A DNA stretch of 32,000 bases from Acaryochloris marina S15 (GTDB lineage: Bacteria; Cyanobacteriota; Cyanobacteriia; Thermosynechococcales; Thermosynechococcaceae): positions 2,910,001-2,942,000 of the forward strand of contig NZ_CP064923.1 in assembly GCF_018336915.1 (NCBI RefSeq), read 5' to 3'. The position numbers were made by a program, and so were the translations under genes. The notes beneath the pieces are model-generated. The model saw only the letters and a list, made by a program, of their open reading frames with translations. It was not told the origin of the DNA and made no database searches. Shown one piece after another: positions 5,101-32,000 of the stretch. The stretch's first letter is position 1. Every line of letters begins with the position of its first letter.

Positions 5101-5179
5101 TAGGCTTATTTAAAGATAAATTTATAAGACATGCAAATTTAGACTCAAAGGAATTGAGTATTTAAATTTAAATTTATGA

Positions 5180-5332: not shown

Positions 5333-5385
5333 AAGCTAAAACTAACTCCTTTTTTAGTCAGTGAATGTTTTAGGAAAATTTGTTC

Positions 5386-10394: not shown

Positions 10395-10438
10395 TATGGT
10401 TCTTAGAATTAAAGTAATATTAACGGGGGATTTTTGTA

Positions 10439-13728: not shown

Positions 13729-13764
13729 GTCTGTTAAAGAATTAGAGTAAGGAGTTAAAAAATA

Positions 13765-14535: not shown

Positions 14536-14577
14536 GCTACTCATTGATTTTTATACTGTGTTTTCCATAGAATTATA

Positions 14578-15678: not shown

Positions 15679-15739
15679 TTGAAACTATCTTATTGTTATT
15701 GTTTATCTTGTTGACTGATTTAGTATTGATTTGAATAAT

Positions 15740-16900
15740 ATGAATGAAGAAAATAAGAAAATAGTCTTTCTCATTACGTCTTTGGAGTATGGTGGTGCGC
15801 AGACACAACTTATTCCCTTAGCTTTCGAACTTAAGAAGCTTGGATGGGAGATTTTGGTGGTATCGATGCGAACTCCAGAAGCGTTTGTTGAGGATTTGAA
15901 TAAAGCTGCTATATCAGTAGCCTCTTTGGACATGCCAAAAGGAATACCTGATCCAAGAGCCATACTAAAATTAGTAAGGATTTTAAAAGATTTTAAACCC
16001 CAAATTCTAAATTCACATATGTTTCATGCGAATCTATTGGCTCGCATTACTAGACTACTTGTAAAGGTTCCAGTGTTAATTTCAACAGCTCATAATGTAA
16101 ACGAAAAGTCTTCCGCCCAGGACCAATTGGATAAAGCAAGTTGGTTCGAAATTGCATATCGATTAACAGATCCTTTAAGCAACCTCACTACAACGATTTG
16201 CCAAGCAGGTGTTGATAGATATGTGCATGTAAAGGCTGTACCTTCAGAGAAGATTCTTTTTATACCGAATAGTGTTGATACTCGTCGATTCTATCCAGAT
16301 CGATCAGTACGTGAGTTGGTTCGTACTTCATTAGGAATAGAGAATCAATTTTGTTGGCTTGCAATCGGTAGATTGGAACTTCAAAAAGATTATCCGACAA
16401 TGCTTTCGGCGTTCTCAATACTTGTAAATCAGTATCCTGATACGCAATTGTTGATTTGTGGGACTGGCTCTCTCCAAGATGAAATTGAAAACTTAGTATT
16501 CTCTTTGAAGTTAGAAAGAAATGTAAAGTTGTTAGGGGTTCGTAAAGATATTCCTCAGTTGATGAATTCAGTCGATGGTTATGTAATGTCCTCAGCTTGG
16601 GAAGGAATGCCTATTGTGCTGCTTGAGGCTTCTGCAACTGGATTACCAATAGTATCAACAAATGTAGGTGGAAATTCAGAAGTGGTAATACATGGTCAAA
16701 ATGGATTTCTTGTACCGCCTCATGATGATAGAGCTTTGGCATTACAGATGAGTGAACTAATGGCTCTAACACCTAATCAACACAACAATATGAGCAAGGC
16801 AGGTACAAATCATATTCTCAATAAACACCAATTAGATAAACTTAGTAATCAGTGGAATAGCCTTTATGAAAAAACTTTTGAAGAAGTGACGAATTTATAG
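15740..16900 (+). CDS. Glycosyltransferase family 4
   Basis: The track ORF starts at TTG 15731. The first ATG at 15740 gives MNEENKKIVFLITSLEYGGAQTQ. The E-x7-E motif is EGMPIVLLEASATGLPIVSTNVGGNSEVV. Confidence 0.9.
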   Translation: MNEENKKIVFLITSLEYGGAQTQLIPLAFELKKLGWEILVVSMRTPEAFVEDLNKAAISVASLDMPKGIPDPRAILKLVRILKDFKPQILNSHMFHANLLARITRLLVKVPVLISTAHNVNEKSSAQDQLDKASWFEIAYRLTDPLSNLTTTICQAGVDRYVHVKAVPSEKILFIPNSVDTRRFYPDRSVRELVRTSLGIENQFCWLAIGRLELQKDYPTMLSAFSILVNQYPDTQLLICGTGSLQDEIENLVFSLKLERNVKLLGVRKDIPQLMNSVDGYVMSSAWEGMPIVLLEASATGLPIVSTNVGGNSEVVIHGQNGFLVPPHDDRALALQMSELMALTPNQHNNMSKAGTNHILNKHQLDKLSNQWNSLYEKTFEEVTNL

Positions 16901-16905
16901 TGTAG

Positions 16906-17877
16906 CTACAGAGTTGAAAAGTAGTATTTATTAAGAATTTTTTTGAGATAAGGCCGTCCAATAGCAGAATTATATATTTTGTAGAATTTACTACTCCTTT
17001 GACTAACCTGCCAACTATGTCTAAGTAATGATTGGATAGTAAACCAATTGATTGCTTTTTTTTGTGCTAGCAAGTCACCATTAGAATAATCTTTAAAGTA
17101 ACCTTCTATAAAACTATTGATTAAGATTCTCGGAACTTGATTAAAGGTAAAGGATTTCGTTCCCCAGTAAAGTAATTCAATGCCTGCGATAAATTTACCA
17201 ACAGTATGAAGTTGAGGCTCTAGTTTTTTTGTCATGCATAAGTCTAGACAATATAGTTTGTGTTTGTTGATTAGAATGTCGCGGCAATCAAAGTCTGTTA
17301 ATCCAACGGAGTACGTTAATTGCATAGGAGTAAACGAAGATTTTAGTCTATCTACAAGATCCTCATATAGATTATGGCAGTACTCATTGGGAGATGTAAC
17401 TAATTTATTTTCAGTTTCCATGGCTAGATGAACTCTACGAAGCCATCTTCCAATGCGATATAATTCATCAGTTGAAGTTGACTTTCTTAAGGAATAATAT
17501 AAATCTTCAGCATCTAGTTTGAAACTAACAATTGCATTCCACTTCTCAAGATAAGTTAAGATAGGCAGAGTATAAACTGATAAATCTTCTGATTTAATAC
17601 TTTCTAAAAACCAAGAATATGATTGATACTCTCTTTGTCCTATCTCTCTGGAATTTTCATCTTTAGTCGATTCGTAAAGTGAATTTCCATCAATATTCTT
17701 GTATTTTAGGATTTTTACATATAGTTCTTGGCCATTAGAAAGTTTGTAAATTATCAAAAAACACGTATGCCGAATTTCTAATTCTGCAGAATCAATTACA
17801 TTGACATTATTATCAACAAAAAAATTGAAGCTATTAATATCATGCCTTATTTCATTTATAACTGCATTATTATTCAT
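16906..17877 (-). CDS. Hypothetical protein with protein-kinase-like (APH/Kdo-WaaP-type) fold signatures; possible sugar/polysaccharide kinase
   Basis: 323 aa. Candidate beta3 Lys is in LYVKILKY and candidate alphaC Glu in GQREYQS. The catalytic-loop-like segment is LTDFDCRDILINKHKLYCLDL (compare HGD…N-IL…IDF of small-molecule kinases). This assignment comes from motif resemblance only. The gene converges on the GT4 gene, with stops 5 bp apart. Confidence 0.45.
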   Translation of the reverse strand: MNNNAVINEIRHDINSFNFFVDNNVNVIDSAELEIRHTCFLIIYKLSNGQELYVKILKYKNIDGNSLYESTKDENSREIGQREYQSYSWFLESIKSEDLSVYTLPILTYLEKWNAIVSFKLDAEDLYYSLRKSTSTDELYRIGRWLRRVHLAMETENKLVTSPNEYCHNLYEDLVDRLKSSFTPMQLTYSVGLTDFDCRDILINKHKLYCLDLCMTKKLEPQLHTVGKFIAGIELLYWGTKSFTFNQVPRILINSFIEGYFKDYSNGDLLAQKKAINWFTIQSLLRHSWQVSQRSSKFYKIYNSAIGRPYLKKILNKYYFSTL

Positions 17878-18258
17878 TGTTGTCGAAGTAAGTATAAATG
17901 ATCTTTTATTGAGCTATCTTTAATAGTCTTAACATGGCTAGAGAAAGAATATTAGTAATCATTCGTTTGAGTTATAAGTTTGTTGTTTTCTGACTAAATT
18001 TTAGTTTAATACAAATTTCAGAACTTGGTTTACTTAAAATGTATACTTGTATCTTAAAATTGGACATACAAGAATATTAATTTTGATTTTCTTGACAGAG
18101 TAGATTGACGCTAAATTATTAATTTTAATTATTTTTTGCCTTCAAATTAATTTTAGGTTAAAATAGGAATATCGTCAATATCTTGTCAGATTAAATTCGG
18201 TGTATTTATCTATGAAATAAATAATTTAATTATAAAGAGTATAAGTTTTCTACCTCTA

Positions 18259-18365
18259 TATAGCGATCTGACGTGGGTTGTGAGAATTATATTCAATCTA
18301 AATGGATACTGGTAAAGATTTCAGCCTCTCTACATCTCACGATTGATTTCAGATTGCTATAGATA
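18259..18365 (+). repeat. MITE-like / structured ~100-nt element, copy 2
   Basis: Same element and orientation as 7081-7180. It differs by one substitution (caaTc vs caaCc). It also reads cgtgggtt where copy 1 has a single t, a net 7-nt indel in the 5' arm. It lies in the divergent spacer between genes starting at 17877 (-) and 18656 (+). Confidence 0.7.
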
Positions 18366-18655
18366 ATACTTCTTTGCTTCTGCTATATCTTTCTAGGATC
18401 TAATCAGGAAATATTTCTTCTATTTTTTCTAGTTTTGCATGTTTTAGCTCTTGATCTTTGAGGATAATTACTTAGCATAAAAAATATTTTTGAGAGCTTT
18501 AAAATGCGAAGATAAATAATGCTTAGAGGAATTTTATTTAGATACTTATATCTTATGTTTTTAATTAATAATACTCAAATAAATTTGCAATTAAAACTAA
18601 GTAATAATCTTCACCATATGGTCTATTGTTTTGTCAATTATTTAACTGAGAAAAT

Positions 18656-19771
18656 ATGATCAATAAACCTATTTTACTTTATATAATACCTCTCTCTGTT
18701 ATTGGTGGCACTCAGTCTCATTTGTGCCATTTGCTGGAAGGTTATGCCCATCAGTATGAAATCCATTTAGCTACTGGTGAAAAGGGCTATTTAACTGAGT
18801 TTGCAGAATCTAAAAATATTGATGTTCATATTTTACCAAACTTAATTCGGAGCATAGATTTTAGGTCAGACTTTAAGGCGACTAAAGAATTTATTGCTCT
18901 GATAAAAGAGTTGAAACCTTGTCTGATTCATGCTCATAATTCTAAAGCTGGTCTTGTGGGGAGAATAGCAGGTTATTTATGTGGTGTACCTACTATTTAT
19001 ACTGCACATGGTTGGCAATTTGCTTCAGGAACCCCCATCGTCCATAAATCATTGTCTTATATCAATGAAAAGCTTGGGGCAGCTTTATCCAGCAAGATCA
19101 TTTGTGTTTCGGAAAGTGATAGAAAGTTAGCTTTACATTCCTCACTCACAGATTCAAGCAAATTGGTTACTATTCATTTAGGAATAGAAGATAGTTGCCC
19201 TATTACTGCCCAACCTGAGAAGCAACCTCCAAAAATTGTGATGGTAGCTCGATTTGATACTCAAAAAGATCACTTTACGCTTTTAAATGCTATTTCGAAA
19301 TTAAGCCATTTAAAATTTTCTGTCGATTTGATTGGAAGCGGTCCTCTTCTGTCTGACTGTGTAGAAATGGCTACGAATTTAGATATAACCAATAAAGTTA
19401 ACTTTTTAGGAAACCGCCATGATGTTCCTAAAATCTTATCTTCAGCTCAACTATTTGTTTTAAGTACTCATTATGAAGGATTACCCATCAGTATTTTAGA
19501 AGCAATGAGAGCAGGTTTACCTGTTATTGCTTCTAATGTTGATGGCATCCCTGAGGAAGTAATTGATGGAGAAACTGGATTACTGGTAAAAAGACAAGAT
19601 ATCGATGAGCTAGCTTTTACAATTGAGTTACTTGTGAGTTCTCCAAATATTCGTAAGAGTATGGGCGAACTGGGTCGGCAGACTTTTCAGAATGAGTTTT
19701 GTATTGATCGGATGCTCCAAGAAACTCAATCTTTATATGAACAGCTTCTAAGTACAGGACAAAAAAGATAA
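18656..19771 (+). CDS. Glycosyltransferase family 4
   Basis: 371 aa. The N-terminus is ILLYIIPLSVIGGTQSH and the E-x7-E motif is EGLPISILEAMRAGLPVIASNVDGIPEEVIDGETGLLV. Confidence 0.9.
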   Translation: MINKPILLYIIPLSVIGGTQSHLCHLLEGYAHQYEIHLATGEKGYLTEFAESKNIDVHILPNLIRSIDFRSDFKATKEFIALIKELKPCLIHAHNSKAGLVGRIAGYLCGVPTIYTAHGWQFASGTPIVHKSLSYINEKLGAALSSKIICVSESDRKLALHSSLTDSSKLVTIHLGIEDSCPITAQPEKQPPKIVMVARFDTQKDHFTLLNAISKLSHLKFSVDLIGSGPLLSDCVEMATNLDITNKVNFLGNRHDVPKILSSAQLFVLSTHYEGLPISILEAMRAGLPVIASNVDGIPEEVIDGETGLLVKRQDIDELAFTIELLVSSPNIRKSMGELGRQTFQNEFCIDRMLQETQSLYEQLLSTGQKR

Positions 19772-19854
19772 CACCTCCCGGAACTCATCAGCTCTCTGGT
19801 CGAGATTGAGGACAATGACTCGTAAATGGTCAAAGCCATAACGAAAGACGAAAT

Positions 19855-21305
19855 CGTAAAAAATTTGTAGTCTACCTGTACTTATGCTGCCCCTACCAAG
19901 GCAGAGAGTACAGGAGCTTGCCAGCCTTTCTCCCACTCATTACTGGTGATCATCCCTCTGATTTGCAATACATTGTGGGCTCCATCATGAGTCCATTGCA
20001 TTTTCTTGGTTCGTTTAAAGCGGTCATTGATAATCGTATCAATATGAGATTCCGCAACTTGACTGGTGTAGCTTAGACCCTGTTGATCTCGTTCTTTATA
20101 ATTCACCAGATAGACTTGATTATTCTCTAGATAGTTATATAACTTCTTCAGCTTTGAGCGTTTCTTTTCATTTGTAATGTTGGTCATTAGCAGTTCTAAT
20201 TTTGGCAACGCCTCATCTGACTTACCATGCCACAATTTCCATTTCACTCCCTCCAATGTCTCTGTGAAAGCGTCATCCACTGCCCCCCTGACATTTTGAA
20301 ATCGCATGGCAATATGAAACCAATCCAAAATACACAGAAGTTTTTTGCAGTGTGGAGCCAAGCTTAAAATCACTGACCAACACTTTTGTGCACCATCTGC
20401 TAAAGCGGTAACCCGTGTATTCTCCGTCATTCCCTGCTTACGAGCGGCATTGAGCGTATAGGTTTTCATTGTCGTTAGATCATCATCCTGGGCTGAGAGT
20501 GCACAGCTTTTAACCTTGATCTGACGATGATGGCTATCCACTTCAATAATTTTCTCTGGACGATAGGCCACTGCAGAGAGCGCTTCAAAGCTGCGCTTTT
20601 CTGGATCCTTAGTAGGGACATGGCCACCATCAATTTGGAGGATCACCTCTTGAGCACTGGCCGCTTTGGTTGTGGCTATCGGCTGAAGATGGGCTTGAGT
20701 TAATGTCGCACCCACTTCATTGGTGATGTGTTTGACCTGATTATGGTTATTAACTGAACGACGATGAACCGTCAGTTTCTCTAGGTTTGTCTGAGCTTTA
20801 CGGAAGCTATACAACGCCCCTTGCTCACATTGCAATTTGGCTAAGTCTGGGTGGATAGGGGTGCCAAAGACTGATGATGTAGTCGGCGCACTCTGCCAAT
20901 CACAATCAGGATTTTTACACTTATGCTTTTGGATGCCAATTTTATGGTCAGTAAAAACAGCATGGAACTTGGATTTAGTGAACCCTTTCTTCACAATTTT
21001 CTGACCACATCTTGGGCAAAGATAATAACCAGGGTCTATTAGTTTGGATTGCAAAGCTAAGAGGGAATTTTGTACTTTCTCAAGCAGAGAGATTTGTTCT
21101 TCATGTCGAAGTCCCAAGTCTAAAATAGATTCTGGTACTTCAATATCATAAACTTTGAGAGTATCTCGTTTTACAACCTCTTGAGAACTGACCGATACTT
21201 TCTCGGCAATTATTCGTAACTCGTATTCTACTCTCTCTATCCCAACTAGCCATCTTGCTAATGGGACTATGATCACTGTTTTATATAAGCTACAAATCAA
21301 TTACG
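19855..21305 (-). mobile_element. Insertion sequence (~1.45 kb) carrying a single DDE transposase; imperfect terminal inverted repeats
   Basis: The left end is CGTAAaaaATTTGTAG (19855-19870). The reverse complement of the right end (21290-21305) is CGTAAttgATTTGTAG, a 13/16 match. The IRs are short, so the boundaries are approximate. Confidence 0.5.
19882..21300 (-). CDS. DDE transposase with N-terminal zinc ribbon (ISKra4/ISLre2-like by recollection)
   Basis: 472-aa track ORF with a TTG start; a GTG 9 codons downstream is an alternative start. The Zn ribbon is CPRCGQKIVKKG…HKCKNPDCDW. Candidate catalytic acidic residues lie in ILQIDGGHV, ALADGAQKCW and AESHIDTII. The family label comes from memory of similar cyanobacterial annotations and was not verified. 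Confidence 0.7.
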   Translation of the reverse strand: MICSLYKTVIIVPLARWLVGIERVEYELRIIAEKVSVSSQEVVKRDTLKVYDIEVPESILDLGLRHEEQISLLEKVQNSLLALQSKLIDPGYYLCPRCGQKIVKKGFTKSKFHAVFTDHKIGIQKHKCKNPDCDWQSAPTTSSVFGTPIHPDLAKLQCEQGALYSFRKAQTNLEKLTVHRRSVNNHNQVKHITNEVGATLTQAHLQPIATTKAASAQEVILQIDGGHVPTKDPEKRSFEALSAVAYRPEKIIEVDSHHRQIKVKSCALSAQDDDLTTMKTYTLNAARKQGMTENTRVTALADGAQKCWSVILSLAPHCKKLLCILDWFHIAMRFQNVRGAVDDAFTETLEGVKWKLWHGKSDEALPKLELLMTNITNEKKRSKLKKLYNYLENNQVYLVNYKERDQQGLSYTSQVAESHIDTIINDRFKRTKKMQWTHDGAHNVLQIRGMITSNEWEKGWQAPVLSALVGAA

Positions 21306-21615: not shown

Positions 21616-21863
21616 TAGACTTTTGTGTAAGCAGTAGCGTATTCAATAATTGAATCGTGTGGGAATAGAATAGCAAAATGTGACAATGCAGCCTTCCAAT
21701 TTGCTATGGGTCTTGTCCATCTTTTCGAGTAAAGGTCAGATCCCCCCACTCATCGACCAATCAAATCGAGCACGCAGTAGCTCAACGACAAATTCATTGC
21801 TCTGAAACTGCTACCCATGTTTACAATAGATCCAGAGAAATTCTAATGTTGAGACCTTTGCCC

Positions 21864-22208
21864 ATGCTAGTGAAGTCCACTACTCGTCACATCCATATTT
21901 ACACTGCCCAAGTGGAAAATAACGAGCTGATTCCCAGTGAAAGTGTCTTAACTCTAGATGTTGACCCCGATAACGAGCTGGTTTGGAGTGAAGATGCCCT
22001 CCAGCGAGTGTATGCCAAGTTTGACGAACTCGTTGAAACCTTTTCAGGTGAAGATTTAACAGACTACAACCTCCGTCGTATCGGCTCAGATTTAGAACAT
22101 TATGTGCGATCCCTCTTGCAAAAAGGCATTGTCGGTTATAACCTCAGCAGCCGTGTGCGTAACTTTAGTATGGGCCTGCCCCAGGTAATCGCATCAGAAT
22201 CCAAGTAG
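21864..22208 (+). CDS. ndhM: NAD(P)H-quinone oxidoreductase (NDH-1) subunit M
   Basis: MLVKSTTRHIHIYTAQVENNELIPSESVLTLDVDPDNELVWSEDALQRVYAKFDELVETFSGEDLTDYNLRRIGSDLEHYVRSLLQKG is closely similar to the cyanobacterial NdhM sequences I recall (MLLKSTTRHIR…DLT-YNLRRIGSDLEH). The track start at 21846 adds 6 aa, and the second ATG (21864) matches the family N-terminus. Confidence 0.9.
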   Translation: MLVKSTTRHIHIYTAQVENNELIPSESVLTLDVDPDNELVWSEDALQRVYAKFDELVETFSGEDLTDYNLRRIGSDLEHYVRSLLQKGIVGYNLSSRVRNFSMGLPQVIASESK

Positions 22209-22211
22209 AGG

Positions 22212-22470
22212 GTGGCGGTTTATCAAGACCACATTCAACTCACTACCCAAGAACATGGCAATATACAGGATCTAATGGATTAAGTTCATCAGGCGATCCG
22301 GATTCAGGTATTCAAGTGGGCATGGTGAATGTATTCAATGTCGACAGTACGGGGGGATCGGTGTCATAGAATTTGAGCCGGATCTCAAACAAGACTTACC
22401 AGCCCTTCTGAATCGCCCCCTGATTGATATTGGCCTTTGCCCCCAGGATCATCTTCTAGCCTCATTTCTC
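22212..22470 (+). pseudogene. YjbQ/UPF0047 (secondary thiamine-phosphate synthase) family remnant, frameshifted and 3'-truncated
   Basis: From GTG 22212 the frame reads VAVYQDHIQLTTQEHGNIQDLMD*. Other frames continue as SGIQVGMVNVFNVDST and then IGVIEFEPDLKQDLPALLNR. This matches the family pattern (…GIV-VF-PGSTAAI-TIEYEPGL--DL---L-R). The C-terminal half of the family, including the GTWQ motif, is absent. The remnant ends a few bp from the vWA stop codon. Confidence 0.5.
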
Positions 22471-22474
22471 ATAT

Positions 22475-23254
22475 CTAAGCCGTGAATCCGCCCATTGGAT
22501 TAAAGTTATGTGCCGACTGACTGGCCGTGAGCGCCGCCTGGGAGAAGAGCTGAAAAGCCTTCCGAATCTCATTATGGGAATTGCCCGGCGTCAAGATCCA
22601 TTGTTCACGCACCCCCATCTCTCGAAACACCCGTTTAAAGTCCGTCTGTCCATCATCGATGCCCATTGCTGCAATAATATGGTCTTCCGTGCGCAGCATA
22701 TCCTCGACCATTATCTTGACCTCCCGGACAGAACGCCGAGAATGGGCATCCGCTCCATCCGTAATAATCAGAGATACCGTCCGCACCGGCACCCCATTAT
22801 CGATAAAAGCTTGGGCCTTCGCTAGAACCGTAGCCAGTAACACCAGAGTTTGGTCATAGAGCGGCGTTCCCAGATTCGGATCATAATTGTGTTGATCCAT
22901 CCGCATCGCTTGGTCAACAGAACAGTAGGGATAGAGCACCGCCCCATTGAGATAGCGGTTGTGAACAAGAATATGGTCTTTCTGTGGGGACATGGCCAAC
23001 GTATCCAGCACCGTATTATGTCCAGCCCGGACCACCGCCCCATGGCCGGCAAACCGAATCGAACCCGAATCATCCGGCATGATTGTCACCAGCACCACCT
23101 CACTAGCCATCACATCATCGACTGGCGTTCCCAGGCCAGCCTGGATCTGTGCCCCAATATCGACAATATTGAGGGCCTGCATCGATGCCTGTGAGAGTAC
23201 CCCATCCGCTTGGGCTGATTGGAATAGTGCATTTAGATTCGGAACTTGAGACAT
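22475..23254 (-). CDS. von Willebrand factor A (vWA) domain protein, TerY-like
   Basis: I prefer ATG 23254-23252, which is preceded by AAGGAGaatgtt. That gives a 259-aa product starting MSQVPNLNALF. The MIDAS elements are VVLVTIMPDDSGSI (DxSxS), GTPLYD (Thr) and SLIITDGADAHS (Asp). The 378-aa track version adds an R/W-rich extension that overlaps the upstream gene. Confidence 0.8.
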   Translation of the reverse strand: MSQVPNLNALFQSAQADGVLSQASMQALNIVDIGAQIQAGLGTPVDDVMASEVVLVTIMPDDSGSIRFAGHGAVVRAGHNTVLDTLAMSPQKDHILVHNRYLNGAVLYPYCSVDQAMRMDQHNYDPNLGTPLYDQTLVLLATVLAKAQAFIDNGVPVRTVSLIITDGADAHSRRSVREVKIMVEDMLRTEDHIIAAMGIDDGQTDFKRVFREMGVREQWILTPGNSHNEIRKAFQLFSQAALTASQSAHNFNPMGGFTA

Positions 23255-23360
23255 AACATTCTCCTTAAAAAGTGAGGTGTATAGAGAGGAAGTGATTGAC
23301 GCATTATTGAGAAAAGCCAGCAGACCCAGCAGACGCTGATCGAGCCATAGTTTAATCCGT

Positions 23361-24392
23361 CTAAGGATTGATGCCAGGCCAACCTGCGATCTCATCCGTA
23401 GAACGCACCAAATGCATGCCCGCTTGTTGAAACCGTAGAAATGCCTCATTGGCCTGCTCCGTAAAATCGACCACCCCTGGCACCACCACCGGCGAAGAAC
23501 AATCTTCCAGCAGGTAAATTTTCTTCGCCAAGTCCGGGTCATGGGCTTGAATTTCCGTGAGTAAGTCATCGATAGTCCAGGCGACACAGTGACTCTTGGC
23601 CTGCCCAGCAATAATCACCACATCAAAATCCAACAGCTTTTGGATAAACCGGATATTCTTTTGGGCAATCGGCCGTCCCTTCGGATCATCGAGAACCTCC
23701 GGTCGGAGCACCGAGTAATTTTCTGTCAGAGGATTGCCCCCCTTGATTTCAAAATTGGTCTGACTATGGCGAGCCAGATTATGGAAAAAGCAGGCCTCCT
23801 CCACCGCCGCCACCAGGGCATGGCCAATGCCTCCCAACATCGAGTGATAGGGCCAAATAGTCAGGGGATATTTCCCCTTCTGGGAAAGGCGTTGGACATA
23901 GTGGCGGGCAAAATTCTGCAGAGCCATATAATTGCCCAGACTATAGGCCATTGCCGGATTCACCTTCCAGGCCCCCTGTTCCACCTCTGCCAAAGAAATC
24001 ATCGTCAGGGGCGTGGGAGACTCGCCGCGATCATTCAGCCAAAAATCAGCATGGAAGATCTGCATCGCCGTATGAGTATCCATCGTCGGTGCAATTTCCG
24101 TAATCGTCCCCAAATTGCGGTAGATAAACTCACAAAGTCGGCGATTATCCTCCACTGCCCCCATCCCAGACGGTCCCCCCACAAACAGCTCAAAGTCGGG
24201 AATACAAAACGTATTTTGGACATCAATTGCCATCAGACAAATCCGCATTTTATCCTTCGCTGCTGGCTGCACCCCCTGTTGGCTTGCCCAGTCCCGGGCC
24301 TGTTGGACTCTGTCCTGGTAAGGGACCCGCCACACCTTCCCCACCCGTTGAGGGTCAAAGAAATTAGGAATGGGTAATTGCGTCAACATCAT
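23361..24392 (-). CDS. Isochorismatase-fold cysteine hydrolase, nicotinamidase (PncA)-like
   Basis: 343 aa. The catalytic triad context is [11 protein letters not shown] (Asp), [16 protein letters not shown] (Lys, compare PncA KG…DSYSAF) and [14 protein letters not shown] (Cys). A putative metal site is [13 protein letters not shown] (D-x-H…H). GGAG lies 10 nt upstream of the ATG, which is 11 nt after the kinase stop. Confidence 0.8.
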
Positions 24393-24403
24393 TTTAAAAT
24401 CTC

Positions 24404-26281
24404 CTACAACTGCAATAACTGAATGGTTTGGGACCCTACCGTATAGAGTCCCTGGGGAGCCGCCAATACCTGATAGCCCGTCTGCACAAACGGCTCCGTT
24501 TCCGGGAATTGTCGCTGCAGGATCAATCGCCCTTGATCTACCTGCACCCGAGCAATGCCCTCATCCGTCGCCACCAGCAGGGCATCTTCCACCGCCCAAT
24601 GGGGACAAATGGGCGATCTCCCTGCCGTCCATTCCCCCACATCGGCCTGAGCCACCACCTGACCCGTCGGTGCGATTACCCAACATTGCTGTTGAAGTAC
24701 CCCTTGGTCCTGGATCGTCACGAAGAGCCATCCCAAAGATTGACTAAACGTGCAGTTGGCCGCCACTATCGTCCCCGCTCCCATGGACAACGACAGCCGA
24801 TCATTTATCCCTGAGCGCTGGACATCGAAGACGAAAGCCCCGTTCAGCCGTCCGGCTCGATAAAAACCCAGTCCAAACCGAGGTCCCACCCAAAACTGGG
24901 TTTGTCCGGCCAATACCTCCCCCACCACTGAGTGGTCCCGCATTAACTGTCCTTGGCTCAACCAATAACAATGCCGATCATTCACCGCAACCTGGGGCCG
25001 ACCTTGATAGCAATCCACCGAGATCCGCTCCGTATCTGCCGATAATCTCACCACCTGACCCTGCTGTGCGATCCAAGTAGTTTGACCCTGTAGATACCAG
25101 TCGGACTCAGGACTGAGATCGCCCGTGAGCATCACCGCTCCGTCTTCCCGCTTAAACTGCCCCTCCTCCCAGACCAACCACTGCAGATGCCCTGCTGTCA
25201 ACGTAGCCGCCAAGATCACCCCATCCGTTTGTAAGACCGTCGTGACCTTAACCTGTCCCTGCTGAACGGGTGGAGCAACCCCTATAGATTGCACACAGCT
25301 GGGACAAGCAGATCGAGCATGTTCAACCCCACAGGACGGACAGGTTTGCCAGCGCAAATTTTCCAATAGCGATCGCGGAAATGCTCCCCGCCAATCCTGT
25401 TCAAACACCCGCTGAAAATGATCTAACAATGCTTCCGGTAAGCGATCGCACGGTAAAGCCGGCTTCGGATAGCGTACCTGGGGATGAAACACCGTTATCC
25501 GATGTAAGGGGCGAGCTGCCGCAGGCAATCTCTGAGCTGGATCAGACGGTCTATAAACACCACCATAAGGATTAACAAACAGCAGTGCCTGCATCAGCAT
25601 TACCGTAAAGGCGTACCAATCTGACTCCCAGGAATAGGGTCGACATAAAATAGGCTGTGTTCCCTGCGGATCACACAGTAGTGGATCGACAAAGCGGGCT
25701 GTAAACACCGAACAGGGAAATGAACCAAACTGGAATGAATCGGCATCAATCAGAAATGCCTGGGTGCCCTGCACTAAAATATTTAGGTCATTAAAATCTC
25801 CAATCACCACATCTGCACAATGCAGCTTGGCCACCGTCTCGTGCAGATCCAGAAATAGATTGACCACCACCTGTGTGTCTATCGTCTGCCGAACCTGGCG
25901 ATGGTCTCCGACCCGCCTGCGATGGTCCCCGACCCTCCTTCGGAGATCGCAATACCGTAACAGCACCTCCGCATTCGCCACCAGCGGCATCGTATAGCCT
26001 AAAATTCGCCGTCCGCCTTGATTCATCACCAACCCCTGTGGGGCAATCACCCGCTCAGGTAACGACTGGGGAAACTGCCGCAGCTTTTGCTGATGCAGCG
26101 CCAACCGCTCCCGTGCGCCCTGCTGAGCCTCAGCCATGCCCACAAAATCAGGATGACTGGGAGACTTAAATAGCTTCACCGCCGTGGTTCGATTGAGGCG
26201 ATACACATCCGCTTCTCCCCCCTTCCCAATCGCTTGCTTAGGGCGTAGGCGAACTCGTTTTTGATTGATATAAACGTCCAT
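24404..26281 (-). CDS. Atypical Ser/Thr protein-kinase-like protein with CxxC-x8-CxxC zinc ribbon and ~295-aa beta-rich C-terminal domain
   Basis: 625 aa. The glycine loop is [10 protein letters not shown] and the beta3 Lys is in AVKLFK. The catalytic loop is [12 protein letters not shown] (RIO/Bud32-like D…N) and the metal-binding element is LIDADSFQF. The Zn ribbon is [16 protein letters not shown] (~25293-25345). The C-terminus has repeated W/Q-rich strand-like segments ([62 protein letters not shown]). Confidence 0.8.
25898..25950 (-). repeat. In-frame 24-nt twin-hairpin insertion splitting a HIP1 site, followed by a 21-nt tandem partial duplication
   Basis: The minus-sense sequence is GCGAT-CTCCGAAGGAGGGTCGGGGACC-ATCGC-AGGCGGGTCGGAGACC-ATCGC. 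Deleting the first 24 nt regenerates GCGATCGC. The 21-nt units at 25898-25918 and 25919-25939 differ at 2 positions. Together they encode [15 protein letters not shown]. Confidence 0.85.
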
Positions 26282-26307
26282 AGAAATTTAGAAGTAGCAT
26301 GAGCTTC

Positions 26308-26435
26308 GTATCGCAATACCAATTGACGATACGATCTTATAAAATACAGTATTGCCCTAAAACCTCTTCACAGAAAAGAGATTGAGCTTTTTGCTAGCGC
26401 ACCTAAAATAAATCCGTATTGCAATACCGTATTGC
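26308..26435. promoter_or_regulatory. Cluster of GTATTGC/GCAATAC palindromic sites in the ARH-kinase spacer (candidate operator/internal promoter, or weak terminator)
   Basis: The sites are GTATCGCAATAC (26308-26319), AATACAGTATTGC (26343-26355), and the perfect palindrome GTATTGCAATAC (26416-26427) followed immediately by CGTATTGC (26428-26435). On the minus strand a TATAAG hexamer lies next to the middle site, about 60 nt upstream of the kinase ATG. Confidence 0.4.
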
Positions 26436-26436
26436 T

Positions 26437-27249
26437 TTAAACTTGTTTGATCTCAAAAGTCTGTATAAACGTCGTGGCCACCTGCTGTAAGTCTGCATCG
26501 AGCCGTTTCCAAGTCTCCTGGGCAATCCTTTCTGGTACCCCACCATAAAACCCTTGAGCAATACCACCGGCAATACAGGCTTGGGTATCACTATCACCTC
26601 CAAGCGATACGGCATTGCGAATCGCATCTTCAAAATCTGTAGATTCTAGAAATGCCGTGATCGCCTGGGGTACCGACCCCTGACAGGAGCTATCAAACTG
26701 ATACTGGGGTCGAATCTCTTCCAGGCTCAAACTCAAGTCATAGCCAAAGGTTGCTTCGATATAGGCTTTAATCTCCGCCTTAGACTGCCCCTGTCGCCCT
26801 AGGTAAATGGCTGCCGCAGTTGCCTGTGCTCCCTTAATCCCTTCTGGGTGATCATGGGTGACGGCTGCACTTCGCTTCGCTTCTCGCAATACCGTTTCTA
26901 AATCATCAAAGGCAAATCCAACAGCACTGACCCGCATGGCTGAACCATTCCCCCAACTGTGATACGGTTCCAAGCTGTCTGATGCCCCCCATTCTCGAAA
27001 GGTTCTGCCATAGCCAGCTTTGGGATAGCGCCGATAATAGTCCTTGATGCTATGGACATACTCCTTCTGATGGAGAATGGCATCCGCAACTGCGATGGCC
27101 GAAGGCCGGTCGGGGACCATCGTAAGTACCGTATCGTCTGTAAATTTCGATTTCTTACTAAATAATTCAAACTCTTTCCGTTTCATTCGTCGCCAATGGG
27201 GCTCAAAAACTGACCCAATCATGTCACCTGCGATCGCACCTAGCATCAC
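26437..27249 (-). CDS. ADP-ribosylglycohydrolase (ARH/DraG family)
   Basis: 270 aa with these motifs: MLGAIAGDMIGSVFE, FTDDTVLT, YHSWGNGSAMRVSAVGFAF, THDHPEGIKGAQATAAAIYL, SCQGSVPQAITAFLESTDFEDAIRNAVSLGGDSDTQACIAGGIA. The start codon lies 26 nt inside the 3' end of the PP2C gene, which suggests translational coupling. Confidence 0.9.
   Translation of the reverse strand: MMLGAIAGDMIGSVFEPHWRRMKRKEFELFSKKSKFTDDTVLTMVPDRPSAIAVADAILHQKEYVHSIKDYYRRYPKAGYGRTFREWGASDSLEPYHSWGNGSAMRVSAVGFAFDDLETVLREAKRSAAVTHDHPEGIKGAQATAAAIYLGRQGQSKAEIKAYIEATFGYDLSLSLEEIRPQYQFDSSCQGSVPQAITAFLESTDFEDAIRNAVSLGGDSDTQACIAGGIAQGFYGGVPERIAQETWKRLDADLQQVATTFIQTFEIKQV
27092..27122 (+). repeat. Second copy of the 24-nt twin-hairpin insertion in a HIP1-like site, opposite orientation relative to the gene
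   Basis: The plus strand reads GCGAT-GGCCGAAGGCCGGTCGGGGACC-ATCGT. It is 27/31 identical to the kinase copy. Removing 24 nt leaves GCGATCGT. It encodes an extra MVPDRPSA directly after the FTDDTVLT motif of the ARH. Confidence 0.7.
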
Positions 27250-28074
27250 TGCCTCCTTCTTCCGTCTCTTTCCGTCTAATACTGATTAACGTAGTGTCGT
27301 CCGGTAATAAACCTGGAATCTTCCGCACCTGCTGAGCATCCCAGTCCGGCTGTATCACCTCTCTATTGATTTGAGCGAGCCGTCGTCGCACCTGATCAGG
27401 ATTCTGGAAATAGCGATCGCAACACCAGAACTGATTCAGTGGTCCCACAGGTTCCAACTTTCCAGGGAGATACTCTTCCGCTACATTCATTAAGTCCCCT
27501 ACCCCATCGCTTCCAATCAGCACAGACTGCACCTGCTCAGTAGGTTGTTGAGCATAAATCTGGAGTTGAAATGGATCGGGGCCTTTCTCGGCTTCCCATA
27601 GCAAGCTGTATGCCAAATAGGGCGGAGCATTATTGGCAAATGGACCAATCTGATGAAGCTGCTCATTGATGGCAAATACCCCATCCCCTAGACCAAAAAT
27701 CCAGGTTGTTTCTGGGGTTACTAAACACCCAGTCAGGGTGAATAAGAAGTAATCCAACAGCCCTTGTTCATCCGCTCCTAACGGCTCCTTTAAAGTCTGC
27801 ATCTTCTCTAATAGGCGCTTTCTCAATGTCTGCCAAAACAGCTCGTCTTCTGGTCGTTCCTCTGCCACTAATTGAGCAAGAGTGTGCACCGTTAACTGAG
27901 CCCCTAGCTGCGCTCCGACTTCACTTTTAGGTCGACTCCCGCACCCATCACATACCACCGCAATGGTTGCTTGACCTGGTGTAAGAATGGCCCAAGCATC
28001 CTGATTATTCTGACTGACTCGTCGATGGTTCTGGCCCAAAATAGACCCAGCCGCGACTTCAAAATGCTGTTGCA
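27224..28074 (-). CDS. PP2C-family (PPM) Ser/Thr protein phosphatase
   Basis: The metal-binding motifs are AVVCDGCGS, IFGLGDGVFAI, VLIGSDGVGDL and LPDDTTLISI. I prefer ATG 28074-28072 (MQQHFEVAAGSILGQNHRRVSQNNQDAW), a typical PP2C N-terminus. The TTG at 28144 and the ATG at 28120 fall inside the predicted promoter/operator. Confidence 0.8.
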
Positions 28075-28082
28075 TTGCTCTA

Positions 28083-28138
28083 TAGTGTAAAAGTGACACT
28101 AACTCAACTAAATCTATCATAGTGTCACTTTTACACGA
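28083..28138. promoter_or_regulatory. Two NrtR-type operator-like boxes (TAGTGT-N7-ACACTA; GT-N7-AC core) forming a 17-nt perfect inverted repeat
   Basis: Box 1 is TAGTGTAAAAGTGACACTA (28083-28101). Box 2 is TAGTGTCACTTTTACACGA (28120-28138). The arms GTGTAAAAGTGACACTA and TAGTGTCACTTTTACAC are exact reverse complements separated by 18 nt. Confidence 0.55.
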
Positions 28139-28144
28139 TGTCAA
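28116..28144 (-). promoter_or_regulatory. Near-consensus sigma70-type promoter for the PP2C-led operon
   Basis: The minus strand reads TTGACA (28144-28139), a 17-nt spacer, then TATGAT (28121-28116). Box 2 fills the spacer exactly. Box 1 would lie in the first ~30 nt of the transcript. Confidence 0.5.
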
Positions 28145-28159
28145 GATTGACCCTATCCT

Positions 28160-28852
28160 ATGCCCTATACCTATGACTATCCGCGCCCTGGTCTTACCGT
28201 TGACTGTGTGGTGTTTGGCTTAGACGAACAGATTGATCTCAAAATCCTACTAATTCAGCGCCAGATTCCTCCCTTCCAGCATCAGTGGGCACTGCCTGGC
28301 GGCTTTGTGCAGATGGATGAATCTTTAGAAGAAGCGGCTCGCCGGGAACTACAGGAAGAAACGGGTGTTCAAGGTATCTTTCTAGAGCAGCTCTATACCT
28401 TTGGTGATTTGGGTCGAGATCCGCGCGATCGCATCATCTCCGTTGCCTACTACGCTTTAATCAACCTAATTGAATATCCCTTACAGGCCGCTACTGATGC
28501 TGAAGATGCAGCTTGGTATTCCCTTGGAAATTTACCATCCCTAGCCTTCGATCATGCTCAAATCTTGAAACAGGCTATCCACCGCTTGCAGAGCAAAGTT
28601 CGTTATGAACCGATTGGTTTTGAATTACTGCCGCAAAAATTTACGCTCACCCAAATCCAGCATCTCTATGAAACGGTTTTGGGTCATCCTTTAGATAAAC
28701 GTAACTTCCGTAAGAAATTGCTAAAAATGGATCTCTTAATCTCTCTGGATGAGCGACAAATTGGAGTTGCCCATCGTGCTGCTAGGCTCTATCAGTTCGA
28801 CCAAAGCAAATATGAGCTATTGAAGCAACAAGGATTTAACTTTGAAGTTTGA
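28160..28852 (+). CDS. nrtR: Nudix-related transcriptional regulator NrtR (Nudix hydrolase domain with C-terminal winged helix)
   Basis: 230 aa with an intact Nudix box, [24 protein letters not shown] (G-x5-E-x7-REUxEExGU). The C-terminal wHTH region is [33 protein letters not shown]…RAARLYQF, as in NrtR proteins. It is transcribed divergently from the PP2C operon. Confidence 0.85.
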
Positions 28853-29052: not shown

Positions 29053-29802
29053 CTATTTCATTCTAAAAACATCCATCAGTATGTCTAGTGATTGTTCACA
29101 TCGTCGCTTTGCCTGAGCCATATTGGTGAATCCATATTCTCGATAAAGATTGAGTGATAGATTACGCGCTTGTACGAACAGGCCAATAAGGGGTGTGGTC
29201 CGAATCCTTGAAGCATCTTCACCTTGGGTGACATCGCGAACATAATGGACCTTGTTTTCTACTCCCCAATACCCCCGAATTCTTTGTGCCAAAGGTTCTA
29301 CCTCCTCCAGGAGTGACGTGATGTAATAGCGAGTCTCTTGGGTATCGACAATCATGTCGTTATAGATTTCAGAGCGTTGTGATTCAACCCGAATGAGTGT
29401 TTTGAGACCTGGCCATTGTCGAATATTACTCAGGTCACGGCAGATACTAACGGTTCGCTTTTCAATGCGACCATGCCCTTTTCCCAGGGTTTCAACCGTT
29501 GATTCTGGCTTAAAATGTGCTTTCACATCAGTCAGTAATCCTTTCTGGTTGCCTTTGAGCGCCCCGAGATACTCATTGCCACTGTCAACAATGAGCTGTG
29601 CTGTTTTTTTGGGTGTTGATGGCATCAAAGGCAAAGACCACTCCTTTGAGAGCAAGCTGCTCAATCATTTCAGGCAAGGCCTTGATTTCATTGGTCTTCT
29701 GGTCAACTTCATAAGGGGGCAAGATTAAACCTCTCTCTACCACATAGCCTGTGACCATCATGATTGCGGGATGGGGCTGACAATAAGGATTGTCTGTTTC
29801 AG
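29053..29802 (-). pseudogene. ISAs1-family transposase, frameshifted and 5'-interrupted by an IS4-family insertion
   Basis: Two overlapping ORFs join across a T7 run (29604-29610): …EVDQKTNEIKALPEMIEQLALKGVVFAFDAINTQK | TAQLIVDSGNEYLGALKGNQKGLL…GHGRIEKR…WPGLKTLIRVESQR…TRYYITSL…AQRIRGYWGVENKVHYVRDVTQGEDASRIR. These are classic ISAs1/H-repeat motifs. Upstream coding sequence is cut at 29803 by the IS4 inverted repeat. Confidence 0.75.
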
Positions 29803-31077
29803 CTGAGGGGGCGACATGAAGGCTACAACCCAGCACAGACAAGCTCCATCGCTCTCATCCCCCGTTGATACTCAGGTAGCTTATTGGGAGAGAGTTTCAT
29901 TAGCTCATCCACCAATCGAGCCAGAACTCCATCCCCCGTTATGGCCCACATATACGCAGATAGTCCAACTCGGAATGCACTATGCCGCTTGTTCAGTGAA
30001 GTGGTGGATTCGGGTCTAGTAATATAGCGCTGTAGTCCTTTTTGCTTGAGATTTTGCCCTTGCAGTGCCGCACTGGTATAGGCAATGGCAATCACAATAA
30101 CGATAGCCACCAACCGTTCTTGCATGGCTTGAGAGCCTTCGAGACAATAGCCTCCTTTCTTGAAGTCCCGAAACATTTCTTCGATAGAGAAGCGTTTTTG
30201 GTAGCTGACGATAGCACTATTGAGGTCACAGAAGTTGGTGAGAATAAACCATGCTTCATCAGGTGCAAACCCCTGATACCGTCGTTTCCACTTGGCTGCC
30301 ACATTGAAAGTTCCAAAGCCTTTAGCCTGAGTGACGCGCACATCATTGAGAAATAGCTTTTGACCTGGGACAAGGCCAAACTGTTGGAGTTGTTGAGTAA
30401 ACTGCTGAGCCAGAGCCACTTCGGTATTGCGCTTGAGTCGCAGACAAAAGTAGACCTCTTGTTGGCCTAACCACTGCCCCAGCTTGACGGAACAAAACTC
30501 TCGGTCACCGAGGATGACCAGACGATAGGCTGATAAATGGCTGATAACTTTGCTTAAAACAGCGGTTTGCTCGTCATAGTTGCTGCTGCCCTTTTTGCAG
30601 AGGGCTTCACACCATACGGGAATAGCGCGATGTTGCCAGACCACGCTGACCACCAATAGATTAATCACTCCCCAACTCGTACGGTCGATGACGACATAAA
30701 GCTGGGAGCCTTGAGGATACTGCTGGCTCAGCCACAGCTTAACCAGCGGTAGCCCCAAAGCGTTTCAAGCTCAAGGGTCGGTAAGGATAAGAACCGTTGG
30801 ATTTTTTTCGGCGACTGTCAAAAAGAATCGGCAGTGGCAGCCCTTCTGCTAGCGTCTCGATTTTGACGCAGCGAAGTGTTTGTAATAGATGAACGAGGAT
30901 CTCTAGGAGAAGATACTGGGCAGGAGACAGTTGACGGCGTAAATGGGGTTGGTATAGTGGCAATATCATTGTCAATAAGGTGAGCTGGAGATACATCATT
31001 TGCAGCCCATCTTTTTTCTTATCTATCGGGTTATTGCACAAATAGCAAGGGGTTTACGACGCATGTCGCCCCTTCAG
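29803..31077 (-). mobile_element. IS4-family insertion sequence (~1.27 kb) with 16-bp terminal inverted repeats, inserted into the ISAs1 transposase gene
   Basis: IRL is CTGAGGGGGCGACATG (29803-29818). The reverse complement of IRR (31062-31077) is CTGAAGGGGCGACATG, a 15/16 match. The transposase ORF ends 5 nt inside IRL. Confidence 0.7.
29823..30999 (-). pseudogene. IS4-family DDE transposase, two apparent frameshifts
   Basis: DDE context: LYVVIDRTSW, LVILGDREF and YQKRFSIEEMFRDFKKGG (Y-2-R-3-E-6-K signature). The N-terminal part (MMYLQLTL…FDSRRKK) is in another frame. The frame changes at a T7/A7 run (30802-30808) and near the C4/G4 run (30753-30756). These could also be sequencing errors. 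Confidence 0.7.
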
Positions 31078-31312: not shown

Positions 31313-32000
31313 CTATTCATCCATCTGTCCTTCCTTTTTTTCATTCCTTTTCTCCTTTTGTGTTTTGGGCTTAGATGTAGCGGTTGTTTCACTCGTTGTT
31401 TTATCCTCATCTGAACGGTCATTACTGATGTCCCCTTCTGGCTTCAGGGTCAGTTTACTGGTCAATTTCCTCATGGATTCTCCTCGAAGCGGGACCTTCA
31501 TCGCATCATGAATAATCCGGTCAAGAATGGCATCAGCCAGGGTGGGATCTTGAATTTGTGAGTGCCATTGTTCGAGGGGCATTTGCGTGGCAAATAAACA
31601 GGAAGCTTTACGGAAACGCTCATCTAAGATATCGAGTATTTCTCTAGCCTCAAAGACAGACAGTGGATCTCTAAGCCATTCATCGAGCACGAGTAGATCG
31701 TAAGCCGCTAATTGTTTTCGGAGTTTGGGATAAGACCCATCTCCTTTGGCTAACTTCAACTCCAGAACCAGATCAGCGGTTTTGATATAGCGCACGCTAT
31801 GGCCTTGTTTGCACAAATGATGGGCCAGTACAGCTGACAAGAAAGACTTTCCCACGCCCGTGGGACCAAGCAAAATCAATGACAGATTTTCTTGGAGCCA
31901 ATGGCCTTGAGCAAATTCGAGAAACTGGATCTTTTTGAGCCCTCTGGGCACATCAAAATCCACTGCATCAAGGGTGGCGTGCACCGGCAGTCGAGCTTGC
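31313..32000 (-). CDS. istB: IS21-family helper ATPase IstB (partial; N-terminus beyond the right edge)
   Basis: Walker A is LILLGPTGVGKSFLS and Walker B is DLLVLDEW. Also present are ILDERFRKASCLFATQMPLEQW and DAILDRIIHDA. The frame is still open at 32000. It carries an unusual ~45-aa K/E/T-rich C-terminal tail. Confidence 0.85.
   Translation of the reverse strand, partial: QARLPVHATLDAVDFDVPRGLKKIQFLEFAQGHWLQENLSLILLGPTGVGKSFLSAVLAHHLCKQGHSVRYIKTADLVLELKLAKGDGSYPKLRKQLAAYDLLVLDEWLRDPLSVFEAREILDILDERFRKASCLFATQMPLEQWHSQIQDPTLADAILDRIIHDAMKVPLRGESMRKLTSKLTLKPEGDISNDRSDEDKTTSETTATSKPKTQKEKRNEKKEGQMDE

Follow-up and report, generated by a model that had tools for sequence, protein, structure and literature searches.

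A 32,000-nucleotide (nt) stretch of Acaryochloris marina S15 DNA (NZ_CP064923.1, positions 2,910,001 to 2,942,000), referred to here in its whole length as the window, carries five tightly packed minus-strand genes that face a regulator gene of the NrtR family, and it raises the question of why a nicotinamidase-like hydrolase should be encoded among a protein kinase, a PP2C-type phosphatase, and a vWA-domain protein. A reading made from the sequence alone had seen here a vWA/kinase/PP2C triad with an ADP-ribosylglycohydrolase (ARH) and a nicotinamidase embedded in it, and had proposed an ADP-ribose-linked signalling or conflict system on mobile DNA. Our analysis favors, with somewhat more confidence than doubt, a chromosomal operon for nicotinamide adenine dinucleotide (NAD) salvage and ADP-ribose recycling, in which a divergent nicotinamidase is tied to a module of the Escherichia coli YegL/PphC/YegI type under NrtR control. 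More tentatively, as something possible rather than probable, we propose that the kinase, PP2C, and vWA proteins form a post-translational switch directly controlling the nicotinamidase, which would bring NAD salvage flux and nicotinamide under phospho-control; judged from the sequences compared, the idea of such a phospho-switch is plausible.

Gene layout and conservation of the cassette

The list of open reading frames (ORFs) contains all six genes where the sequence-only reading had placed them, five on the minus strand and a divergent one on the plus strand (lengths in amino acids, aa; the basis of each assignment in brackets):

22475-23254, minus strand: vWA-domain protein, 259 aa (ORF list; the start is the ATG at 23254 behind AAGGAG)
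23361-24392, minus strand: PncA-like cysteine hydrolase, 343 aa (structure model and invariant residues)
24404-26281, minus strand: Ser/Thr-kinase-like protein, 625 aa (conserved motifs and profile comparison)
26437-27246 (ATG) or 27249 (GTG), minus strand: ADP-ribosylglycohydrolase, ARH3-like (PF03747)
27224-28075, minus strand: PP2C-type Ser/Thr phosphatase, 283 aa, the first gene of the operon (PF13672)
28160-28852, plus strand: NrtR-family regulator (Nudix and winged helix-turn-helix), 230 aa (PF21906, PF00293)

The gene identities assigned from the sequence alone proved correct by Pfam searches, structure models compared with Foldseek, motifs, and profile comparison; independent support was needed for the vWA, PncA-like, and kinase labels because none of these three proteins has a Pfam or PDB sequence match. 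The distance from the kinase stop to the PncA-like ATG is 11 nt, as had been claimed. The claimed overlap of 26 nt between the PP2C and ARH genes requires ARH to begin with the GTG at 27249; it shrinks to 23 nt with the ATG at 27246, which is the start of every homologue (all ARH homologues in the alignment begin with MLGAIAGD, matching this ATG). The divergent Nudix and winged-helix gene does face the operon across a gap containing a promoter and two palindromes, although the gap measures 84 base pairs (bp) (28076-28159) instead of the 85 given before.

Conservation was assessed in 80 genome loci anchored on the hydrolase and 80 metagenome loci anchored on the kinase, and the co-occurrence counts refer to those loci that have enough flanking sequence. 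In the kinase-anchored set, the PncA-like gene lies 3' of the kinase gene in 52 of 53 loci, and in all 35 of those with longer flanks, which makes the nicotinamidase an invariant partner of the kinase instead of the embedded extra suggested previously. PP2C is encoded upstream of the kinase in every case (42/42), vWA downstream of it in 34 of 35 loci, and NrtR nearby in 22 of 33. Among 52 hydrolase-anchored loci, 14 contain all six genes in the order of the window, 8 contain the cassette without ARH, and 24 contain the hydrolase alone. Clustering of all ORFs in this set identified vWA (41 loci), kinase (35), PP2C (33), NrtR (25), and ARH (22) as shared neighbors, and no further neighbor cluster occurred in more than 13 loci. 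The PncA-like and vWA genes are the tightest and best-conserved pair, found in several loci without kinase or PP2C. As judged from these gene orders, PP2C-kinase-PncA-like-vWA is a core cassette that is inherited as one unit.

Across cyanobacterial orders, sequence identity reaches 70-93% for the PncA-like protein and 63-76% for the vWA protein, and the gene order is retained even where kinase identity falls to 26-28% and across contigs with a guanine plus cytosine (GC) fraction of 0.31-0.74. The kinase family comprises 545 representative clusters at E≤1e-30, almost all of about 620 aa, and the search for PncA-like homologues yielded at least 8,000 candidates. The regulator gene occurs in two configurations, one divergent, found in cyanobacteria (65-79% identity to the window NrtR), and one co-directional, in which it lies upstream (41-45% identity; contigs with GC 0.39-0.59). 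One kinase cluster derives from a metagenome-assembled genome (MAG) labelled Patescibacteria, and the other genome labels include Entotheonellaceae, Andersenbacteria, and Planctomycetota, all of them labels given by MAG binning; the cassette thus appears to be conserved from cyanobacteria to lineages labelled Patescibacteria.

Additional genes interrupt the cassette in Pseudanabaena. An OGFr_N-domain gene (PF04664, E 6e-33) stands between the PncA-like and vWA genes at L022:11301-11813 and in five other Pseudanabaena loci, and an ORF of 198 aa without a Pfam match lies between the kinase and PncA-like genes in some loci of this genus (L021:9368-9964).

The PncA-like hydrolase and its link to NAD salvage

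Sequence motifs and the structure model make a divergent nicotinamidase, with every nicotinamidase signature kept, the best reading of the PncA-like protein. Its AlphaFold2 (AF2) model, with a mean predicted local distance difference test (pLDDT) score of 80.6, has as top Foldseek matches two nicotinamidases, 2wta (1e-5) and 9u8m (3.8e-5), with RutB, BiuH, and YecD behind them, which supports an isochorismatase-like fold. No variation of the catalytic residues D57, K217, and C269 is seen among 37 cyanobacterial homologues, and 22 divergent ones keep them as well; the metal ligands D105, H107, and H183 (WPYH) are kept in all lineages, and H114 in the cyanobacteria-like group only. In an hhalign comparison with Mycobacterium tuberculosis PncA, for which a hand-entered reference sequence was used, the WPxH, YS, and SHCV motifs align (E 5e-4), and the C269 motif aligns with C138 of that reference. 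The metal in known nicotinamidases binds the pyridine nitrogen, and to our knowledge RutB- and BiuH-type enzymes lack the D-x-H plus WPxH metal site.

The divergence of the family is seen in its weak recognition by Pfam. Among the 37 cyanobacterial homologues, PF00857 was matched by two at E<0.1, and a distant homologue reached 7.9e-5 with 23.3 bits, below the gathering score of 27 bits. Compared with canonical PncA, the protein is longer by 50 aa at its N-terminus and by an insertion of about 60 aa. Its homologues are named 'isochorismatase' or 'nicotinamidase-related amidase' in databases, and our comparison suggests that a large family labelled 'isochorismatase' or 'hypothetical' is a cyanobacterial nicotinamidase.

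The genes found next to the cassette outside cyanobacteria connect it with the Preiss-Handler route. In the most divergent copy (L173, 3043-9985), pncB, nadE, PP2C, kinase, PncA-like, and vWA genes follow one another on one strand, and Preiss-Handler genes stand beside the cassette in six further non-cyanobacterial loci (L048, L102, L117, L119, L125, and L156). Of 10 loci with a co-directional NrtR, 8 contain pncB, often 28-260 nt past vWA. NrtR-pncA-pncB operons represent the classical NrtR regulon in several phyla (PMC2330246). Because pncB and nadE are linked to the cassette and operons of this kind are the classical NrtR regulon, the cassette is, on gene order, best seen as the known nrtR-pncA-pncB operon type with kinase and PP2C genes placed ahead of the nicotinamidase gene and vWA after it. 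The NAD and ADP-ribose theme of the sequence-only reading was right.

The three remaining products of the cassette resemble a known triad to different degrees. In its N-terminal kinase domain, the kinase shows a GKGGEA loop and K36 together with the catalytic loop GDFNDLN and the motif IDADS; a zinc ribbon (CxxC..CPxC; C314/C317/C326/C329) invariant in the alignment comes next, and then a family-specific C-terminal domain of about 290 aa. The window kinase has no Pfam match, and single-sequence and profile searches of the PDB gave only sub-significant matches to the kinase loop; Pfam Pkinase was matched by 18 of 35 homologues (best E 1.4e-6), and NCBIfam matches comprised LanL kinase (9e-7) and Bud32 (2e-4). 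Aligned with E. coli YegI by hhalign, the kinase profile gave a probability of 97.7% and an E-value of 2e-12 over columns 16-320, which include the zinc ribbon, and the region past the ribbon did not align. This profile comparison makes the kinase a homologue of YegI, a member of the E. coli YegL/PphC/YegI (TerY-P-type) triad, in which PphC dephosphorylates autophosphorylated YegI in vitro (bioRxiv 10.1101/303594).

The phosphatase belongs to PP2C_2 (PF13672, 2e-22), and contains the metal-binding motifs NNQDA, CDGCGS, GSDGVGD, and DDTT; its similarity to PphC was not significant by BLASTP. The vWA protein gave no Pfam or PDB sequence match in single-sequence and profile searches, and none of 48 homologues had a relevant Pfam match; its AF2 model (pLDDT 84) yielded 36 Foldseek matches in the PDB at E<1e-3, all of them vWA domains. 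The residues of its metal ion-dependent adhesion site (MIDAS), D61-x-S63-x-S65, T130, and D166, are invariant and also kept in divergent homologues. In addition, the protein has a conserved N-terminal helical extension and a C-terminal SQS..SQ..GGF tail that is conserved down to 25% identity. Its profile matches E. coli YegL weakly (E 8e-4), with the MIDAS and TDG motifs aligned.

ARH is assigned by PF03747 (2.4e-34) and by its best PDB match, ARH3 (E 5.5e-17), and both of its Mg-binding motifs, FTDDT and GGDSDT, are present and invariant in the alignment. The sequence-only reading had counted ARH as a core part, but it is an accessory, encoded in 6 of 33 kinase-anchored loci and in 19 of 58 PncA-like-anchored loci with enough upstream flank, mostly in cyanobacteria. 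In two loci without the triad (L051 and L053), ARH lies directly 5' of the hydrolase, and this pairing fits a shared role of the two enzymes in clearing by-products of NAD consumption. ARH appears to be present in multiple copies in some Pseudanabaena loci (22 loci contain 31 ORFs of the ARH cluster).

A peculiarity of this strain concerns the ARH and kinase genes. Three copies of the 16-mer GCGATGGTCCCCGACC are present in the window, where none is expected by chance, and all of them are inside the operon, at 25898-25939 (plus) and 27097-27123 (minus), in insertions that keep the reading frame and are missing from every homologue. The insertion in the kinase gene consists of a tandem 21-nt pair encoding RRRVGDH twice, and that in ARH, unique to this strain, is a hairpin-like 24-nt segment encoding 8 aa, MVPDRPSA, right behind FTDDTVLT. 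The 16-mer resembles a small dispersed repeat able to insert without frame disruption.

The regulator and the control region

The regulator consists of an N-terminal Nudix domain fused to a C-terminal winged helix (PF00293, 5.8e-22, and PF21906, 6.5e-28). It matches the NCBIfam model NF050029 at 2.4e-54 with 184 bits, under the cutoff of 400, and its full-length PDB matches are AraR (5bs6, 1e-57) and Shewanella NrtR (3gz5, 1e-36). The intergenic region contains the following elements:

28083-28101, no strand: NrtR-type operator box 2, TAGTGTAAAAGTGACACTA, with a GT-N7-AC core, between the operon promoter and the PP2C start, overlapping the candidate nrtR -35
28120-28138, no strand: NrtR-type operator box 1, filling the 17-nt spacer of the operon promoter
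28116-28144, minus strand: operon promoter TTGACA (28144-28139)-17-TATGAT (28121-28116), agreeing with a sigma-70-like consensus at 11 of 12 positions
28093-28120, plus strand: candidate nrtR promoter GTGACA-16-TATCAT, 10 of 12 positions by consensus match only, overlapped by both boxes

Both 19-nt boxes read TAGTGT-N7-ACACTA and fit the core of the NrtR operator consensus, which comprises palindromes of about 21 bp with a GT-N7-AC core that overlap the target promoter or lie downstream of it (Rodionov 2008, PMC2330246). TTGACA-17-TATGAT was the top promoter match within a 6.7-kb scan, and in the direction of the operon the order is TTGACA, box 1, TATGAT, box 2, and then the PP2C ATG at 28075, a start that lies downstream of the predicted promoter and agrees with the N-termini of the homologues. 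The same layout, a box between TTGACA and a -10 element of the TATAGT, TATGAT, or TATATT type, recurs in Acaryochloris, Nodosilinea, Pseudanabaena, and Leptolyngbyaceae loci. In a motif scan, about 28 of the 33 genome loci with PP2C had boxes 5' of that gene, mostly near -51 and -25 and even without an adjacent nrtR; the scan found two boxes in all 14 metagenome loci with a divergent NrtR, and one or more in 15 of 17 loci with a co-directional nrtR. Hydrolase loci that lack kinase and PP2C, with or without vWA, have a single box 20-236 nt upstream of the hydrolase gene. From the conserved boxes and their positions across loci, repression of the operon by an NrtR-family protein acting through the two boxes is therefore well supported by comparison, and autoregulation of nrtR is implied because both boxes overlap its candidate promoter.

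ADP-ribose relieves the DNA binding of Synechocystis and Shewanella NrtR in vitro (Rodionov 2008, PMC2330246). By analogy, ADP-ribose is the presumed effector of the Acaryochloris regulator; AraR, however, its closest solved homologue, responds to arabinose. The Nudix catalytic box is intact in the window NrtR and in 33 of 34 cyanobacterial homologues of the divergent configuration, and degenerate in 15 of 18 co-directional regulators. NuhA of Synechococcus PCC 7002, a member of the NrtR family with an intact Nudix box, is an active ADP-ribose pyrophosphatase (PMC2330246). Since its Nudix box is intact as in the active NuhA, the window regulator may also degrade its presumed inducer, ADP-ribose.

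A 12-nt tandem repeat, CCCTATACCTATG, in about 2-2.5 copies (28151-28182), extends across the nrtR start and encodes the conserved MPYTYDYP; it is probably merely Tyr/Pro-rich coding sequence.

Proposed mechanism, rival explanations and known systems

The proposed mechanism combines established knowledge of NAD metabolism with the gene content of the cassette. Consumption of NAD by sirtuins, ADP-ribosyltransferases, or NADases would raise ADP-ribose, which would release NrtR from both boxes and allow transcription of the operon. The nicotinamidase would then convert the freed nicotinamide into nicotinate for the Preiss-Handler route (PncB, NadD, NadE), and ARH, where present, would free ADP-ribose from modified proteins or from O-acetyl-ADP-ribose. 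Degradation of ADP-ribose by the NrtR Nudix domain would reset repression. Between them, the kinase and PP2C would determine whether the vWA protein, the nicotinamidase, or the kinase itself is phosphorylated. The vWA protein would use its MIDAS metal to bind the nicotinamidase or a phosphorylated site, and all three together would gate nicotinamidase activity or assembly. The C-terminal kinase domain of about 290 aa is a candidate sensor or docking module, and the SQS..SQ..GGF tail of the vWA protein a candidate phosphorylation site.

Several observations weigh against an NAD-salvage operon with a switched nicotinamidase. The window PncA-like protein has no significant PDB sequence match in single-sequence or profile searches, and PF00857 does not match it even at E≤10; its Foldseek TM-scores are modest (0.41-0.62), and the loop with the catalytic Lys was modelled at low confidence. 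Among proteins of solved structure, the regulator is closest to AraR, which responds to arabinose, and not to an ADP-ribose-responsive NrtR. No pncB or nad gene was found near the cluster in any of 24 cyanobacterial loci. Furthermore, for about half of the PncA-like genes of cyanobacteria (24 of 52), no triad lies within 10 kb, so that the switch is dispensable for the enzyme. Finally, triads of the TerY-P type are elsewhere associated with defence systems (PMC10542128).

This last association leads to an anti-phage or conflict system, in which ADP-ribose arising from an attack of phage or toxin on NAD would induce the operon, ARH would reverse hostile ADP-ribosylation, and nicotinamidase and triad would restore or signal NAD status. 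We consider such a system quite improbable here, even though CoCoNuT restriction systems come with TerY-P triads and modules like TerY-P can serve as defence systems on their own (PMC10542128), and ARG-centred operons with a Nudix/WYL regulator, phosphatases, and vWA chaperones are predicted to counter viral ADP-ribosylation (PMC9503650). The hallmarks that the conflict and mobile-DNA proposal of the sequence-only reading would lead one to expect are lacking: sequence conservation is very high, not rapidly diversifying; neighbor clustering found no nuclease, toxin, other effector, or defence gene conserved beside the cluster; none of the six proteins matched a TerY-P model of PADLOC at E≤0.01, and what PADLOC did match was sub-significant (best E 7.7e-4); and the kinase is essentially missing from plasmids, with one weak match among 72,556. 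Most cassettes also lack ARH, and pncB and nadE are linked to the cassette in other lineages. IMG/VR-listed contigs carry 15 cassette copies (L161-L175), which would favor a conflict role, but these contigs are 42-545 kb long, and the flanks examined contain ordinary cellular genes (aldo-keto reductase, a second vWA protein, NAPRTase, and NAD synthase) and no phage genes; they are probably host or provirus-flagged contigs, with carriage by very large phages as the less likely alternative. Given the contig sizes and the cellular metabolic genes in the examined flanks, these copies were not counted as proof of phage carriage. Insertion sequence (IS) elements around the window copy could be taken in the same sense, and the genes flanking the cluster are as follows:

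19882-21300: UPF0236 family protein, transposase-type
21846-22208, plus strand: ndhM, core NDH-1 subunit and core photosynthesis gene, the nearest gene on the vWA side (PF10664, E 2e-52)
29053-29664: ORF without a Pfam match, adjoining the DDE transposase
29823-30758: DDE transposase
31313-31984: IstB-like IS21 helper, N-terminally truncated

Transposase-type genes are indeed present as the sequence-only reading had noted, but on both sides of the cluster, not on one, and they are specific to this genome because all other loci have different flanks. The truncated yjbQ described on one side could not be confirmed: the 266-bp gap behind ndhM (22209-22474) gives, in two frames, peptides similar to YjbQ-family proteins, but their stitched translation has no Pfam match. 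Taken together, the sequence evidence points to a chromosomal and housekeeping-like cluster, not to mobile anti-phage DNA. Farther away, a low-GC stretch at about 3000-19800 (0.28-0.41, compared with 0.43-0.55 elsewhere), with at least one GT4 glycosyltransferase gene (18656-19771), looks like a horizontally acquired polysaccharide-synthesis island unrelated to the operon.

The other alternatives concern the cassette proteins themselves. A metal-loading or assembly module, in which a vWA MIDAS chaperone would insert or exchange the nicotinamidase metal or assemble the enzyme in the manner of NorD, CoxE, or ChlD, with kinase and PP2C timing the step, is a variant of the NAD-salvage model with another role for vWA, and we regard it as unlikely. 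It agrees with the predicted metalloenzyme nature of the PncA-like protein (conserved D/H/H ligands), with the close PncA-like and vWA pairing even in loci without kinase or PP2C, with the NorD vWA domain among the Foldseek matches of the vWA model, and with the proposal that TerY-P is a metal-sensing switch (PMC10542128); what neighbor clustering did not find is a MoxR-type AAA+ partner, the usual companion of chaperone vWA proteins. The hydrolase could also be a cysteine amidohydrolase acting on another amide (a pyridine or pyrazine carboxamide, or a ureide-like compound), with only an indirect link to NAD. The D-x-H and WPxH metal site, present and conserved across all lineages, the two nicotinamidases that head the structural matches, and the position of the gene under NrtR boxes and next to pncB and nadE render this rather doubtful, despite the missing Pfam and PDB sequence matches, the extension and insertion relative to canonical PncA, and the rank of RutB and BiuH as next structural matches. 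That unrelated genes came to lie side by side by accident in this strain, an idea for which one could cite the generally poor conservation of cyanobacterial operons and the flanking IS elements, is refuted and retains practically no probability, as the same order is found in well over 100 independent contigs of GC 0.31-0.74 with near-perfect co-occurrence. The sequence-only reading had named a lack of co-occurrence elsewhere as an argument against itself, and with the arrangement recurring in these contigs that argument fails decisively.

The proposed NAD-salvage operon shares its components with several described systems and differs from each of them. With NrtR nicotinamide-salvage operons (PMC2330246) it has in common a Nudix and winged helix-turn-helix regulator, promoter-overlapping GT-N7-AC palindromes, and a nicotinamidase-type target, which outside cyanobacteria shares its gene string with pncB and in some cases with nadE; unlike in those operons, the nicotinamidase belongs to a divergent 343-aa family undetected by Pfam, and it is accompanied by a kinase, a PP2C, and a vWA protein, none of which is listed in the regulon tables examined (PMC2330246). 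The cyanobacterial regulator of the cassette resembles NuhA, judged from the published description, in being a cyanobacterial NrtR-family protein with an intact Nudix box, and differs from Slr1690 in keeping an active-looking one. The Streptomyces nrtR1-draG locus likewise links an NrtR-family regulator to an ADP-ribosylglycohydrolase, but no kinase, PP2C, vWA, or nicotinamidase has been reported for it (Rodionov 2008, PMC2330246).

The triad itself corresponds to TerY-P and YegL-PphC(YegK)-YegI, in which a vWA protein and a PP2C-like phosphatase likewise accompany a Ser/Thr kinase of about 620-650 aa that has a zinc ribbon behind its kinase domain (PMC10542128; bioRxiv 10.1101/303594). In contrast to these triads, essentially every copy of the cassette has a nicotinamidase gene between kinase and vWA, and its context is NAD salvage, not the tellurite resistance or restriction of TerY-P. 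The ARG-centred Nudix/WYL systems bring together ARH, a Nudix-HTH repressor, a phosphatase, and vWA in one neighborhood (Iyer 2022, PMC9503650). ARH is optional in the cassette and not its center, its phosphatase is of the PP2C type with a kinase as partner and not a rhodanese-phosphatase, calcineurin-like, HD, or HAD protein, and the cassette is conserved, not fast-evolving, and has no variable effector modules; the description of these systems mentions neither nicotinamidase nor PP2C, and cyanobacteria are absent from its listed lineages (PMC9503650).

A literature search, which did not extend to the RegPrecise tables, Gerdes 2006, or Anantharaman 2012, found no description of a nicotinamidase coupled to a vWA/PP2C/kinase triad. 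The operon is real and widespread, and as a variant of a known operon type it is apparently undescribed. Bacterial NAD salvage is regulated transcriptionally by NadR, NiaR, and NrtR. A kinase/phosphatase switch dedicated to a salvage enzyme is not known to us, and none was found in the searchable literature either.

Triads of vWA, PP2C, and kinase are widespread and turn up in defence contexts, and the publications cited here name no defined target or output for them (PMC10542128; bioRxiv 10.1101/303594). In hundreds of sequence clusters the cassette links a triad of this kind with a single enzyme that is easy to assay, which makes the mechanism of the triad directly testable. If the proposed control of the nicotinamidase is true, it would be the first defined enzymatic output for a triad of the TerY-P/YegIKL type.

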